Below are positions 5,431 through 63,126 of a stretch of DNA of 64,000 nt, piece by piece. The notes under the pieces are model-generated. The model worked only from the letters and a program-made list of their open reading frames with translations, made no database searches and was not told the DNA's origin. The stretch's first letter is position 1, and every line of letters starts with the position of its first letter. The stretch lies in contig DATIID010000001.1 of assembly GCA_035480035.1 (NCBI GenBank), positions 265,323 to 329,322 on the forward strand, given 5' to 3'. Origin of the DNA: Candidatus Saccharimonadales bacterium. Lineage in GTDB: Bacteria > Patescibacteriota > Saccharimonadia > Saccharimonadales > OMJO01. A program made the position numbers and the translations under genes.

Positions 5431-5992
5431 AGGTCAGGGCTTTTATCGGTTTATAGCTCAGCCGGTGGATAACACACGGTCCGAATTGCTTCAGTCGTTC
5501 CAAGTGTAGCTGCGTGCCATAGCCAACGTGTTGATCAAAGCCGTAATTCGGAAAAAGTTTGGCTTGATCATACATATGTTGATCGCGTAAAACTTTGGCG
5601 TAAATGCTGGCAGCACTGACAATCGGATGAAAGACGTCTGCATCAACAACCGCCTCAACATTTATATATTCACGTGGACAATAATTAATATGGCCATCAA
5701 TAATAATCTTTGAGTCAGGCTGAGCTTGGAGTTTGGCCAAAGCCCGTTTAACGCCTAATCTCATCGCCAGAGTGAGGCCTCTTTCATCAACCTCCGTCGA
5801 ACTAACCCAACCTTCACCGATTTGACAAGTCGTCTTGATTTGATCAAATAACCTCGTCCGCTGATTTCGACTGAGTAATTTAGAATCTTTTAAACCAACG
5901 GGTAGATTCAATCTAGCTTGGGCGGCTACAATTAACAGTGGACCAGCCCAACTACCACGTCCTACCTCATCAATACCAATGACCCTAATCAT
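5423..5992 (-). CDS. rnhB: ribonuclease HII
   Basis: 189 aa; N-terminal IGIDEVGRGSWAGPLLIVAA catalytic motif. There is an 8-nt overlap with the downstream yraN-like gene. Confidence 0.9.
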   Translation of the reverse strand: MIRVIGIDEVGRGSWAGPLLIVAAQARLNLPVGLKDSKLLSRNQRTRLFDQIKTTCQIGEGWVSSTEVDERGLTLAMRLGVKRALAKLQAQPDSKIIIDGHINYCPREYINVEAVVDADVFHPIVSAASIYAKVLRDQHMYDQAKLFPNYGFDQHVGYGTQLHLERLKQFGPCVIHRLSYKPIKALTYD

Positions 5993-23108: not shown

Positions 23109-23849
23109 CTACTTAATGACAAGTGTTTTAAGGGCATCTTCAATATAAGGTGTTTGATCCTTTTCACCGTTTAGAATGTCATGTACAGCATAAATGTGTA
23201 CGCTCCCCGAACCTACAAAGTATGTATATTCTTTAGTGCCGAACGGTATGTCCATCATTGGCGTTTTTTCTTTTTGAACAAAGTAATACTTTTTCACAGT
23301 TAAACCTCCGGCGGTTTTAAAGTCAGTTTGTTTTACTCCACGTAAATCTGCATTAGTTGGTCCCTGTGAGACTGTGTCTAGCAAAAATGGTATGTTTGTA
23401 AAGTCCTTACCGCCTATCGTTTCTTCAACCTTTGCTTTAGTACCCTTTTTATAAACAATATCGTTTGCACTGGAAGTAAATAGATTTTTTACATCTGTAT
23501 TAGTTGTTAAGTCCCAGCCATCAGGAATTCTAATGCTATATTTGGCTGAATTAAAAAGATACCAGTTAGCTGTTTCGTCTGATGTGTCAGTAAATTTTTG
23601 GCCGTTTTTAGTCGCACAGATTTCAGGAAAAGTTTCTTGTATTTTGCTACCAACGGCTTTCTTGCATTCATCAAAATTTGTAATTTTTGTGGTTTGAGCA
23701 TAGCTATTTTGGTTAGCTTTATTAAGTGAATCATCAGTTGATTGTTTGCTGTGCCAGACATACCAGCCAGTAGCGCCAATCATACTGACAATAATCAAGA
23801 TTAATATTGTTTCTATTGTTCCAATTCCACTCTCATTGAGTTTTTTCAT
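23109..23849 (-). CDS. hypothetical exported protein with an atypical prepilin-like N-terminus
   Basis: 246 aa. MKKLNESG|IGTIETILILIIVSMIG has Gly at -1, Glu at +5 and a hydrophobic helix, as in class III (prepilin) signals. The mature part is unknown (contains IPDGW). SD AAGGGGGA. Confidence 0.5.
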   Translation of the reverse strand: MKKLNESGIGTIETILILIIVSMIGATGWYVWHSKQSTDDSLNKANQNSYAQTTKITNFDECKKAVGSKIQETFPEICATKNGQKFTDTSDETANWYLFNSAKYSIRIPDGWDLTTNTDVKNLFTSSANDIVYKKGTKAKVEETIGGKDFTNIPFLLDTVSQGPTNADLRGVKQTDFKTAGGLTVKKYYFVQKEKTPMMDIPFGTKEYTYFVGSGSVHIYAVHDILNGEKDQTPYIEDALKTLVIK

Positions 23850-59097: not shown

Positions 59098-59733
59098 TTA
59101 GAGGCTTGTAACACTTTTTTGCGTGCTGTCTGACAGCGTATAAGTCAAAGTAAATTTAGTACACTCGTTACCGGGTGTGTTGTCGCATGCCGAGCCATCA
59201 TCTTTGATGGGCGCATAGCCATACTGAGTTGTGGTCGAGGAAGCCAGGAATTGGTTCGACGTACCGTCAGGGTCTTTTGTTGCTTCTTTGTCTAATCCCT
59301 TGAGGTTGGCAGCTATCCAGGCAGCGTCATTCATGTTAGCGAAGGTTGGGTACATCGCATTGTTAGCATTGAAAGTCTCTAGGTGACTGGCCACGGCTTT
59401 GATGTCGGTTTCTCGCTCTGTGTCTTTAGCGTTAGCAGCTATTAGGTCACCAGAGCTAGTATCAGTCGCTGTATTCGCGGCCGATTGTAAATCTTGAATT
59501 TTTTTATCATCGTCCGATAGCTGTTTATTAAGTTTGGTAATAGTGCCGTTTAGGTCATTAACTTTGGACTGTTGCATGAACCAAACACCACCTATGGCCG
59601 CCGCAATTAACACCACGACGAGCACGATCATGATTAGTTTCTTCTTGGATTTGGGCGGTGCCGGGTAGCCACCAGGTGGCGGGAAACCATCAGACGCATA
59701 GCCGTATTGTTGAAAGTTTTTTTGTGGGTTCAT
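59098..59733 (-). CDS. bitopic membrane protein with a pilin/pseudopilin-head-like ectodomain (paralog A)
   Basis: A P/G/Y-rich N-terminus, one TM and a coiled linker are followed by ERETDIKAVASHLETFNANNAMYP...KDP...YGY...C-x7-C-TKFTLTYTL. Start moved to ATG 59733 (GAGGT SD, TATAAT at fwd 59755-59750); the track GTG at 59748 is too close to the -10. Confidence 0.65.
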   Translation of the reverse strand: MNPQKNFQQYGYASDGFPPPGGYPAPPKSKKKLIMIVLVVVLIAAAIGGVWFMQQSKVNDLNGTITKLNKQLSDDDKKIQDLQSAANTATDTSSGDLIAANAKDTERETDIKAVASHLETFNANNAMYPTFANMNDAAWIAANLKGLDKEATKDPDGTSNQFLASSTTTQYGYAPIKDDGSACDNTPGNECTKFTLTYTLSDSTQKSVTSL

Positions 59734-59833
59734 TTTTACCTCTAGCACGATTATACCTTAAGCACTATAATTGCGTAACAATTTGCTATAGCCGTCAGTT
59801 ATCGTTGATGTTAGAGTAGTCCTAGGAACTATC

Positions 59834-60646
59834 ATGGATCAAGATGATTCACCTCTAGGCGGACCTTTGGAATTACCCGGCGAAGAATCGCCGTCGACTC
59901 ACCCTGTTAATAAATCACCACGCCGCTTTAACCCGAAAATATTAATCATTATTCTATTAGTCATTGTCGGCTTAGCTGGAGTTGGTTTTGGCGCTTATAA
60001 ACTCATGCATAAGTCGAAACCGAAAAATACTACTCCTACTTCGACAAGTTCTAACTCCACCACCACTTCTCAAGAGCCAACAGTCACCGATGTACCGACC
60101 GTAACCGGCACCAAGGACTATAAAAATACTAGTCTGGGTGTCGAGCTGACCTATCCGGATGGCTGGCAAATCACCGTCAGCGACAAGGCATCTGACGGCA
60201 TCAAACTAGAATCCCCAACCTTTAATTATGAAACCACCGATGTCGGTATCGTATCGGGGAATTTTCGAGTCTATATTCGAGCTGGGGCACGTCCAGTCGA
60301 TAGCAAGTACATCGGTCGCGGCGTGGCCATAACAAGCTCACAGCCTTTAACCTACACCTCGCCATTAGCCACCCAGCGCAAAACTACTAATTTATCACTG
60401 TTTGGTCTCGACACACCCGACCAGTTCGCCTTTTTCTTGATTGCCGGTAATTTCAACCTGAAAAAGGGCGACACGTTGGGCCCAAACTACGGTAAAGAAC
60501 CAGAAACTATTTTAGTCACCGGCGGTTATTCAGCCAAAGAGTTAAAAGATGATTTTCAAACTAACCAAGTACCGTTAAGTAGTTATAGTAGTACTAATGC
60601 TTACAAACAAGCCATCGATATCGTTAAATCTTTGAAACTTCAGTAA
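59834..60646 (+). CDS. hypothetical bitopic surface protein
   Basis: 270 aa with an acidic N-terminus, a TM (ILIIILLVIVGLAGVGFGAY), an S/T-rich linker, and a beta-rich ectodomain containing YPDGW. Confidence 0.6.
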   Translation: MDQDDSPLGGPLELPGEESPSTHPVNKSPRRFNPKILIIILLVIVGLAGVGFGAYKLMHKSKPKNTTPTSTSSNSTTTSQEPTVTDVPTVTGTKDYKNTSLGVELTYPDGWQITVSDKASDGIKLESPTFNYETTDVGIVSGNFRVYIRAGARPVDSKYIGRGVAITSSQPLTYTSPLATQRKTTNLSLFGLDTPDQFAFFLIAGNFNLKKGDTLGPNYGKEPETILVTGGYSAKELKDDFQTNQVPLSSYSSTNAYKQAIDIVKSLKLQ

Positions 60647-60665
60647 TTATGGTATAATATAGTTT

Positions 60666-60911
60666 ATGAATAGTTTTGAAAGACCCCTAGATTTGGTTGA
60701 AGAGCTCTTCCCCAGTGAAGAATCAATTGATAGCATACGAGAATCAAAGCCCGGTTTTATCACCCCAGAAACTCATCCTCACGCTACACCTAGTGAGATT
60801 AGACGTAGTTATGAGACTGACACTTATGAAACCGGACCAGATACAGTGCCGACGGTGGACGATCTAGTTTTAGTTTCTAAAATCGGTCGTTTTATTCGAC
60901 GACAAAAATAA
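60666..60911 (+). CDS. small acidic hypothetical protein (81 aa)
   Basis: An extended -10 (TGgTATAAT, 60650-60658) lies 7 nt before the ATG. There is no TM or signal peptide, and the tail is basic (RFIRRQK). Confidence 0.5.
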   Translation: MNSFERPLDLVEELFPSEESIDSIRESKPGFITPETHPHATPSEIRRSYETDTYETGPDTVPTVDDLVLVSKIGRFIRRQK

Positions 60912-61141
60912 TGGAAAACATCAATAACAATCAAGGCGAAGATAATGTATTAGACCGGGTTTTCGGTGGCGAGCCAGAAGTCAGCGAAGAAGCATTAGAC
61001 AATTATTGCCGTAATAAAAATCCTTATGTCGCCTCCGCCAGGTCATTTTCGGCTCGCAATAATGCTACCGCCAATGCAGATACAGCTACAGATACCGATA
61101 TTAACCCTTTGATCGACGACTACCTAGACGATTTAGTTTAA
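60911..61141 (+). CDS. small acidic hypothetical protein (76 aa)
   Basis: The start overlaps the upstream stop (TAATG). Asp/Glu/Asn-rich, with no TM. Confidence 0.5.
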   Translation: MENINNNQGEDNVLDRVFGGEPEVSEEALDNYCRNKNPYVASARSFSARNNATANADTATDTDINPLIDDYLDDLV

Positions 61142-61146
61142 CTTTA

Positions 61147-61812
61147 TTACCTTGTGCTAGTACTGTCGGCCGGCGCTGAAGTTGGATTACTCTTAACACT
61201 TTTCTGAGTGCCGTTTTCTAGAGTGTACGTTAGGGTGAATGTCACACAGGCGTTAGTGTCGCCATTGTCGCAATCTTGACCGCTTGAATTCAGCGGACGA
61301 TAGCCGTATTGGCCTTTGACTGAGGTTTCGGCAAAATCGTAACCAGATCCAGATGGATCGCGTGTCAATTCTTTTTGCAGACCCGGCATGCTATTAGATA
61401 TCCATGTGGGATCGTTTAAATCAGCGAGTGCTGGATAGTAGGTGTTATTTTGGTAGAAAAGTTCAAGTAAAGTATCGATTGACTTTATATCTGTTACGCG
61501 CTCAGAATCCCGACCAGCAGCTGTTGGATCTTTTTGGCTAGTCGGGGTGTTTGAAGCCGCTGGATTTTGATTCCCAGTTGAATTGGATGACGTATTGTTT
61601 TTATTTCCAGACGCTAGTGCCCAAACTACTCCTGCGGCCAAGATCAACAAGAGTACGGCGGCTACGATAATGAATTTTTTTGGAGATCTCGACTTACCCA
61701 TTTGAGAGTAGGCTATCGACGGTTGTGAAGAATCGGGACTAGTTGGTAATGCCTGTCCGCTAGAGTATTGAGACATGTCGTCAATAGGATTCTTGGCTTT
61801 GTTATTAAGCAT
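61147..61812 (-). CDS. bitopic membrane protein with a pilin/pseudopilin-head-like ectodomain (paralog B)
   Basis: 221 aa; same architecture as 59098-59733: SERVTDIKSIDTLLELFYQNNTYYP...RDP...YGY...C-x7-C-VTFTLTYTL...TQKSV. A TAATAT box lies 6 nt before the ATG. Confidence 0.65.
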   Translation of the reverse strand: MLNNKAKNPIDDMSQYSSGQALPTSPDSSQPSIAYSQMGKSRSPKKFIIVAAVLLLILAAGVVWALASGNKNNTSSNSTGNQNPAASNTPTSQKDPTAAGRDSERVTDIKSIDTLLELFYQNNTYYPALADLNDPTWISNSMPGLQKELTRDPSGSGYDFAETSVKGQYGYRPLNSSGQDCDNGDTNACVTFTLTYTLENGTQKSVKSNPTSAPADSTSTR

Positions 61813-62832: not shown

Positions 62833-63126
62833 TCAAGCTAGATGGCTTGTTAGCAGTGTTAACAACACCAAAATCCCTATTAACCGTCGAAAGTAATTAA
62901 TCCCGTTATAAACTTCGAGTACTGCCCAAATAATTAGGGCTAATAATGATATGTAACTCAGGCCAGAGCGCAGCCAATTAGTGTGAATAAACCAGTTGCC
63001 CACCATTGTCAGAAACCAGGTACTTAGATAGACGTTGGGTTTTTGCCAAATAACGAAATTGCCATGGCCATCTTCCCAGAATTTCTGGCTGAATGATTGA
63101 TTCTTTGGTCTCCGCTCTCTTACCAT
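62833..63126 (-). CDS. hypothetical small membrane protein (97 aa)
   Basis: Two or three Trp-rich hydrophobic helices. A TATAAT box (fwd 63138-63133) lies 6 nt before the ATG. Confidence 0.55.
   Translation of the reverse strand: MVRERRPKNQSFSQKFWEDGHGNFVIWQKPNVYLSTWFLTMVGNWFIHTNWLRSGLSYISLLALIIWAVLEVYNGINYFRRLIGILVLLTLLTSHLA

Follow-up and report, generated by a model that had tools for sequence, protein, structure and literature searches.

Two open reading frames (ORFs) in a 64,000-nucleotide stretch of the chromosome of an uncultured Candidatus Saccharimonadales bacterium (Saccharibacteria/TM7), hereafter the window, encode predicted membrane-anchored proteins whose C-terminal domain is homologous to the globular head of type IV pilins. 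Type IV pilins are defined by a polymerizing N-terminal helix, and their head is normally studied within the fiber. The two genes, ORF A (59098-59733) and ORF B (61147-61812), both lie on the minus strand, as had been noted in an earlier reading of the DNA letters (the sequence-only reading). The ORF list agrees with that description: both translations have a P/Q-rich N-terminus, one transmembrane (TM) helix, a spacer and a C-terminal domain of ~115 amino acids, the motifs that had been quoted, C-x7-C included, are legible in both, and three plus-strand ORFs of 270, 81 and 76 amino acids are located between them.

Homology of the C-terminal domain to pilin heads

The similarity between ORF A and ORF B is confined to their C-terminal domains, in which 61 of 128 residues (48%) are identical (BLASTP, E 6e-37). 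A word-index homolog search with ORF B alone recovered only ORF B itself, and the family was delimited by searching exhaustively with HMMER, the two ectodomains serving as queries. This search returned 947 cluster representatives at E ≤ 1e-3, 472 of them at E ≤ 1e-10, and the domain was always C-terminal. Its members include canonical prepilins of ~150 amino acids with a G/FTIVE leader (the slash marking the cleavage position) and a match to the Pfam family N_methyl (PF07963; E 4.5e-8), such as P0009, which begins MSLKRNQSG/FTIVELLIVIIVIGILATLV. A profile of 58 heads retrieved 568 proteins; the best 120 of these are almost all PF07963 proteins of ~150 amino acids that, where named, are called pilin, prepilin or type II secretion system (T2SS) protein G and, where the organism is stated, come from Candidatus Saccharimonadales.

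The genes coding for prepilins with this head are located directly downstream of pilB (T2SSE) and pilC (T2SSF) in all four contexts examined. On the two longer contigs, L005 and L088, two prepilin genes without this head come after the pilin gene, pilM is next, and recA or recX is located upstream. Given this gene order, the head-bearing prepilins are the PilA-type pilins that come first in type IV pilus operons. The proposal of the sequence-only reading that the ectodomains are related to type IV pilin heads is therefore upheld by the presence of the same domain in prepilins of pilB-pilC operons, with identities to the ORF A head of 75% (P0324), 68% (P0338) and 65% (P0340); the ORF B head is 45-49% identical to PilA-type prepilins (for example P0324, P0338, P0340 and P0009). 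The core of the head is kept in at least 90% of the prepilins and of the anchored proteins, both cysteines included, and consists, in ORF B numbering, of R105, D108, E117, Y126, P127, N133, D152, P153, Y169, Y171, C181, C189 and L194. ORF A and ORF B match the head-family profile A2 over the whole ~115-amino-acid head, with the conserved R, D, E, Y-P, D-P, Y-x-Y and C-x7-C positions present.

The gene order of these operons varies in its details. In L005 (4764-8105), pilC is separated from the pilin gene by a sortase gene and two genes without annotation (348 and 519 amino acids), and the pilin gene directly follows pilC in L088. The recA gene flanks the pilus operons, joined by recX in L088.

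Our identification of the domain as a pilin head is supported by its homology to genuine prepilins, as judged from alignments, and not by fold matching. Against Pfam T2SSG (PF08334, cut-off of 21 bits), ORF B scores 18.9 bits at full length and 20.6 bits as an ectodomain, and ORF A gives no match, while the relatives P0003 (30.3 bits) and P0030 (24.3 bits) pass the cut-off. T2SSG is matched by 25 of 58 family heads, and ComP_DUS is matched weakly by 14 (best E 1e-5). Comparison of ORF B with EpsG/GspG in the PDB gives an E value of 0.036. The AlphaFold2 (AF2) model of the ORF B ectodomain, computed with a 58-sequence alignment, reaches a predicted local distance difference test (pLDDT) value of 92.6 and a predicted template modeling (pTM) score of 0.83. 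It contains a 28-residue N-terminal helix (2-29), a loop with short helices and then β-strands, the predicted order being the one expected for a pilin head that retains α1-C, the soluble half of the pilin helix. For full-length ORF B, AF2 run on the single sequence gave an unusable model (pLDDT of 45). Foldseek against the PDB returned pseudopilin PulG as the top match, but this match is weak and not significant, which leaves the structural confirmation incomplete. The likeness to GspG-type pseudopilins put forward by the sequence-only reading holds for the α1-C helix and the Y-P motif, which align, and fails for the remaining head, which is not alignable; the relation of the head to proteobacterial GspG is distant and partial.

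Absence of the prepilin determinants

Neither ORF A nor ORF B has a class III signal peptide (G at −1, E at +5), and neither matches N_methyl even at E ≤ 1, in agreement with the earlier assertion that their N-termini are not prepilin signals. The TM helix is preceded by K-K-K after 32 cytoplasmic residues in ORF A and by P-K-K after 47 cytoplasmic residues in ORF B. Both proteins have four basic residues before the TM helix and one after it, and this charge distribution, together with the paired cysteines in the head, points to an N-in/C-out orientation. In the prepilins of the family, 2-7 residues separate α1-N, which is the hydrophobic half of the helix, from the head, and a conserved G-I-Q-x-K-A-R junction carries α1 onward. 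No such continuous α1 runs from the membrane into the head in ORF A and ORF B, where spacers of 45 and 29 amino acids, respectively, intervene (that of ORF B is predicted to be disordered), and the junction is not conserved in the anchored forms. The claim that both the prepilin leader and the pilin helix had been replaced must accordingly be narrowed: the leader and the hydrophobic half are gone, and α1-C is kept within the head. Lacking α1-N, G−1 and E+5, and with 29-45 residues inserted, the two proteins should escape PilD cleavage and filament packing.

The spacer of ORF A also has a regular pattern. Its hydrophobic residues at positions 58, 61, 65, 68, 72, 79 and 82 are spaced by 3-4 residues, as read from the translation, and alignment of 13 homologs shows that K57 is invariant and that Q54, L61 and L68 are conserved in at least 90%. 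Together, the heptad pattern and its conservation imply that this segment is an oligomerizing stalk. The features of both proteins and of the genes between them are listed in Table 1.

Table 1. Features of ORF A, ORF B and the intervening genes (HMM, hidden Markov model).
Feature	Position in the window	Strand	Basis or remark
ORF A, 211 amino acids, membrane-anchored pilin-head protein, coiled-coil-stalk subfamily	59098-59733	minus	family HMM, E 1e-46
ORF A residues 1-32, P/G/Y/Q-rich cytoplasmic tail, ends KSKKK	59638-59733	minus	translation
ORF A residues 33-51, single TM helix, no G−1 or E+5	59581-59637	minus	hydropathy; no prepilin motif; no N_methyl match
ORF A residues 54-82, juxtamembrane heptad-repeat stalk, motif W-F-x-Q-Q-S-K-V-x-x-L	59488-59574	minus	sequence, alignment
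ORF A residues 96-211, pilin head (α1-C helix, α-β loop, β-sheet, C-x7-C)	59101-59448	minus	identity to prepilins
ORF B, 221 amino acids, membrane-anchored pilin-head protein, low-complexity stalk	61147-61812	minus	family HMM, E 7e-40
ORF B residues 1-47, S/P/Q-rich cytoplasmic tail, ends KSRSPKK	61672-61812	minus	translation
ORF B residues 48-66, single TM helix	61615-61671	minus	hydropathy; no prepilin motif; helix 45-65 in single-sequence AF2 model
ORF B residues 67-97, N/S/T/P-rich low-complexity stalk	61522-61614	minus	translation; pLDDT <50 in single-sequence model
ORF B residues 98-208, pilin head	61189-61521	minus	AF2; near-matches to Pfam T2SSG and PDB
270-amino-acid bitopic protein (TM, S/T-rich linker, ~170-amino-acid ectodomain)	59834-60646	plus	neighbor, not shown to belong; no Pfam family
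Two small acidic ORFs, 81 and 76 amino acids	60666-61141	plus	neighbors, not shown to belong; no Pfam family

The gene calls agree with public records. The locus is present again on contig CAZNEB010000001.1 of assembly GCA_964572305.1, public assemblies call ORF A and the three intervening plus-strand ORFs as genes, and the NCBI hypothetical protein VLF39_01845, from a metagenome-assembled genome of Candidatus Saccharimonadales, has the same sequence as ORF B. For ORF A, the ATG at 59733 is the favored start, with a Shine-Dalgarno-like AGAGG site 5 nucleotides upstream and TATAAT just before it; a longer version starting at the GTG at 59748 is unlikely. In the case of ORF B, only a weak promoter-like site was seen, and the overall promoter scan did no better than chance.

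A wider family of anchored heads

ORF A and ORF B belong to a large set of proteins in which the head is attached to something other than a pilin helix. Of the 150 best representatives, 12 are canonical prepilins and 113 carry anchors other than those of prepilins; the remaining 25 are without a TM segment and may be fragments. The anchored proteins fall into several types. Some are bitopic proteins of ~180-240 amino acids resembling ORF A and ORF B, many of them with a W-[FY]-x-Q-Q-S-K-[IV] coiled-coil motif. Others have a two-TM DUF4190-like anchor immediately before the head, or an N-terminal signal anchor followed by tandem heads. The longest (500-765 amino acids) combine a long P/S/T/Q-rich cytoplasmic tail, a TM helix, a common domain of ~400 amino acids and the head; this middle domain has no Pfam match, and 46 of 50 long proteins fall into one similarity cluster. 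P-rich N-termini recur throughout the anchored family. Anchors and stalks differ widely, spanning 30 to about 400 amino acids, and all end in the head, which is what would be expected of a distal functional module.

The 500-765-amino-acid members include P0005, P0012, P0016, P0027, P0030 and P0111. Two head-like domains in tandem, on a signal or DUF4190-like anchor, are present in P0003, P0006, P0013, P0033, P0054, P0115 and P0305; P0003 also has a precomputed match to Pfam PF26697. Some members are automatically named "pseudopilin PulG" even though they are unable to be prepilins.

Pilus machinery was absent near the anchored genes in all six contexts examined (the window, L004, L006/L007, L090/L091, L092 and L093), the neighbors being housekeeping genes.

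Apparently separate histories of the ORF A anchor and head

The sequence-only reading had taken ORF A and ORF B for products of an old duplication that are diverged at the DNA level. The divergence is clear: there is no significant blastn match between them, the head codons have 52.5% nucleotide identity, and third codon positions, which look saturated, agree at only 19 of 55 identical residues. A simple tandem duplication, on the other hand, does not fit the data, since the ORF A head groups with prepilins and the ORF B head with anchored proteins. In a crude neighbor-joining tree of 338 heads, ORF A and its ortholog P0004 nest among the prepilins P0009, P0324, P0338 and P0340, and ORF B clusters with other anchored proteins. 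The same tree requires at least 21 changes of architecture, compared to about 104 with shuffled labels.

The anchor of ORF A has a different affinity from its head. Residues 1-95 alone retrieve about 20 homologous anchors with E values of 5e-12 to 1e-6 in a small database, and the heads on these anchors are only 32-45% identical to that of ORF A. The similarity of ORF B to this coiled-coil anchor subfamily (M-D-N..., P-rich tail, TM helix, W-[FY]-x-Q-Q-S-K-[IV]-x-x-L stalk, head) is marginal, with E values of about 1e-4 to 1e-3. Judging from these comparisons, ORF A is a mosaic. It seems that its head either was swapped with that of the pilin gene in its lineage or has been held similar to it. 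Replacement of the head, or gene conversion from pilA, would be the simplest explanation for the combination of an old anchor with a pilin-like head.

Genomic neighborhood

ORF A was used as a query to seek related loci in genome contigs and viral contigs, and none were found; syntenic loci were gathered via YdjM, which gave 80 ydjM-centered loci from other Saccharimonadales species. The neighbors of ORF A and ORF B in the window include ydjM, a GT2 glycosyltransferase gene and an epimerase gene. T2SSE, T2SSF and PilM were found neither in the scanned regions of the window nor in L001, and are present in all four prepilin contexts. A pilus operon elsewhere in the window was considered and rejected, at least as far as the scanned ORFs go, all of which are housekeeping genes.

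ORF A and ORF B do flank the 270-amino-acid gene and the two small acidic genes on the opposite strand, which the sequence-only reading had described as a three-gene insert within a candidate host-contact module. Neither part of that description survives comparison with related genomes. Homologs of the 270-amino-acid protein (44-54% identity) are encoded 1-2.5 kilobases from ydjM in four other Saccharimonadales genomes (L084, L078, L076 and L047), all without pilin-head genes at that place. The occurrence of this gene near ydjM in head-less relatives indicates that it is a resident of the locus, and that ORF A and ORF B, which flank it, were added in this lineage specifically. A head-domain ORF is present within 8 kilobases in only 3 of the 80 ydjM-centered loci, and homologs of the 81- and 76-amino-acid acidic ORFs were not detected in 84 related loci, which argues against a conserved module. 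L004, the closest relative found, has an ORF A ortholog two unrelated genes away from ydjM and no ORF B. Just past ydjM, L078, L076 and L047 carry a Fur-like gene that is also found in the neighborhood of the window; Zip-like and possible RmuC-like genes, recognized by eye from their N-terminal sequence only, follow it in L078 and L076. Membership of the 270-amino-acid protein itself in the head family was rejected, its weak phmmer matches (E about 1e-6) being judged to be driven by the TM and low-complexity segments.

Several further observations concern genes near these loci. The 270-amino-acid homologs are located at 6402-7226 in L084, 6016-6807 in L078, 5370-6164 in L076 and 6499-7305 in L047, and the ectodomain ends in ...TNAYKQAIDIVKSLKLQ. 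Small acidic ORFs (76-115 amino acids) adjoin anchored pilin-head genes both in the window and in L004 (687-1034, minus strand), and are not mutually alignable by eye. A 97-amino-acid two-TM protein, p97, is encoded at 62833-63126 (minus strand) of the window and beside ydjM in L011, L019, L025, L039, L006/L007 and L084. The p97 homolog of L006/L007 (35% identity) lies directly upstream of an anchored pilin-head gene, which may represent a weak recurrent linkage. In L084, next to the p97 and 270-amino-acid homologs near ydjM, a 109-amino-acid ORF at 5651-5980 (minus strand) has a prepilin-like N-terminus, RG/FAMVEALLVIII, and is without the head studied here. Finally, a 246-amino-acid ORF at 23109-23849 (minus strand) of the window begins MKKLNESG/IGTIETILILIIV and so resembles a prepilin at its N-terminus, where G occupies −1 and E occupies +5; no Pfam family matches it, no pilus genes adjoin it, and its neighbors code for UvrB and a SLOG-family protein.

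Possible roles of the anchored heads

Saccharibacteria live attached to host bacteria via type IV pili (PMC11623550, PMC9894109), and recent work on their pili treats only lollipop pilins (PMC11623550). Going by their sequences, ORF A and ORF B are type II bitopic proteins bearing the PilA-type head of Saccharimonadales, including α1-C, in which a P/Q-rich tail, an ordinary TM helix and a stalk stand where the class III signal peptide and α1-N would be. The stalk, a heptad-repeat coiled coil in ORF A and an N/S/T-rich low-complexity segment in ORF B, would hold the head, at its distal end, at a fixed distance from the membrane; in ORF A, the coiled coil would oligomerize the heads. Anchored heads would offer the same exposed surface as the shaft of a pilus and could thereby mediate close contact between surfaces. 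From the sequence data, we give roughly an even chance to such a fixed, non-polymerizing display, in which stalked heads of the pilus type would serve surface contact or adhesion at short range. Short-range contact is favored because the head is always distal, the length of the stalk varies and the ORF A head tracks the pilin. A more elaborate version, which is possible and rather on the unlikely side, is a two-tier system of contact, in which the PilA head would act on retractile pili for long-range capture and on graded stalks for close docking to the host. The stalks would then range from 30 to about 400 residues, some of them oligomerized by coiled coils, and recurrent gene conversion or domain swapping would keep each head in step with the pilin encoded in its own genome.

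Alternatively, the pilin-head fold might have been co-opted for a pilus-independent role in the envelope, such as spacing, interaction with the wall or S-layer, or scaffolding. This idea, which we regard as tentative and fairly improbable, is consistent with the location of the genes among housekeeping and envelope genes (ydjM, the GT2 glycosyltransferase and the epimerase) and with the many architectures of the family, including the conserved ~400-amino-acid middle domain. It accounts less well for the ORF A head, whose 65-75% identity to operon prepilins, against 32-45% for heads on homologous anchors, suggests a continuing link to the pilin. In another reading, anchored heads might bind the pilus or its machinery: imitating the contacts made by the head of a pilus subunit, they could tether or bundle pili or compete with pilin for a partner, and in this way regulate piliation. 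The close similarity of the ORF A head to the first pilin of the operon, the apparent exchange of heads and the core residues common to pilins are compatible with such an interaction. We nonetheless consider it unlikely, given that the anchored genes are never found in pilus operons (six contexts examined), that long and variable stalks would put the head far from the membrane platform, and that the G-I-Q-x-K-A-R junction is not conserved in the anchored forms.

The hydrophobic stretch of ORF B is followed by W-A-L-A/S-G, recognized by eye as a possible signal peptidase I site, and some representatives have merely a short N-terminal hydrophobic segment ahead of the head. ORF B and similar members could thus be cleaved and released as soluble heads acting as ligands, competitors or decoys. 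We find this quite unlikely, as an n-region of 47 residues is atypical of a Sec signal peptide and as ORF A and the coiled-coil subfamily are without an A-x-A site and keep their conserved juxtamembrane motif. It is very improbable that the two proteins are true, if non-canonical, pilins that undergo processing and become part of pili, in spite of the homology of their heads to real pilins, the F that comes first in the hydrophobic stretch after KK in ORF B and the treatment of TM7x PilX1/PilX2 as pilins without predicted PilD signals (PMC11623550), for there is no G−1, no E+5 and no N_methyl match, 32-47 residues precede the TM helix, a 29-45-residue spacer interrupts α1 and the genes are located outside pilus loci.

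Mounting the head of the operon's first pilin on conventional anchors, if real, would be a new use of the pilin domain by a large family that is restricted to Saccharibacteria as far as the named matches show. A literature search, partly ill-aimed, brought up no account of such heads attached to anything but a pilin helix. The stage of episymbiosis at which the cells are in close contact is poorly understood, and the anchored heads would be specific candidates for a part in it. The family as a whole would serve as a natural experiment showing which surfaces of the head can function without a filament. It may also be an instance in which a pilin and its anchored copies evolve in concert, and the "pseudopilin PulG" annotations of some anchored members would be corrected. 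Demonstration of a match to the pilA of the same genome, or of a role in docking, would raise the interest of the family further.

Comparison with known systems

The closest counterparts of ORF A and ORF B are the PilA-type prepilins of Saccharimonadales, which share the head at its R, D, E, Y-P, D-P, Y-x-Y, C-x7-C and L positions. Compared to these prepilins, the two proteins carry an ordinary TM helix between a long cytoplasmic tail and a 29-45-amino-acid stalk, and are encoded away from pilus operons. The synteny of the operons that contain head-bearing prepilins is similar to that of the RecAX-linked "locus two" of TM7x (PMC11623550), a likeness of gene order alone. GspG, PulG and EpsG (T2SSG; PDB 3fu1, 4lw9, 3gn9 and 1t92) have the same α1-C helix and Y-P motif, and PulG is the top Foldseek match; they differ in that ORF A and ORF B have no match to T2SSG or fall below its cut-off, that the remaining head is unalignable and that there is no T2SS context. 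ComP (PF16732), a minor pilin that acts as a DNA-uptake-sequence receptor, likewise has a small disulfide-containing pilin head, and the weak ComP matches of the family heads probably reflect this general similarity. A ComP-like DNA-binding surface is unlikely given the acidity of the heads, whose isoelectric points are 4.5 in ORF A and 4.3 in ORF B. The Pam donor-strand pili of candidate phyla radiation (CPR) bacteria (bioRxiv 10.64898/2026.03.03.709456) were also considered; they are immunoglobulin-like and unrelated.

In overall topology, ORF A and ORF B resemble the bitopic pilus alignment proteins PilN and PilO, in which a short cytoplasmic tail, a TM helix, a coiled coil and a C-terminal globular domain succeed one another; the juxtamembrane coiled coil is a further likeness in ORF A. 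Here too the proteins differ, because ORF A and ORF B have no match to the PilN or PilO families of Pfam at E ≤ 1 and their C-terminal domain is a pilin head. In the pilus operons examined, two unannotated genes (197-200 and 208-209 amino acids) directly follow pilM, where pilN and pilO would be expected. The coiled-coil oligomer proposed for ORF A would have the "lollipop" design of adhesins and viral attachment proteins. Modular pilins, such as PilB of Streptococcus sanguinis (PMC8179133) and PilX1/PilX2 of TM7x (PMC11623550), are likewise products of recombined pilin modules that diversify surface functions. They keep the polymerizing module and add a functional domain to it, whereas ORF A and ORF B are the converse, keeping the head and replacing the polymerizing part.

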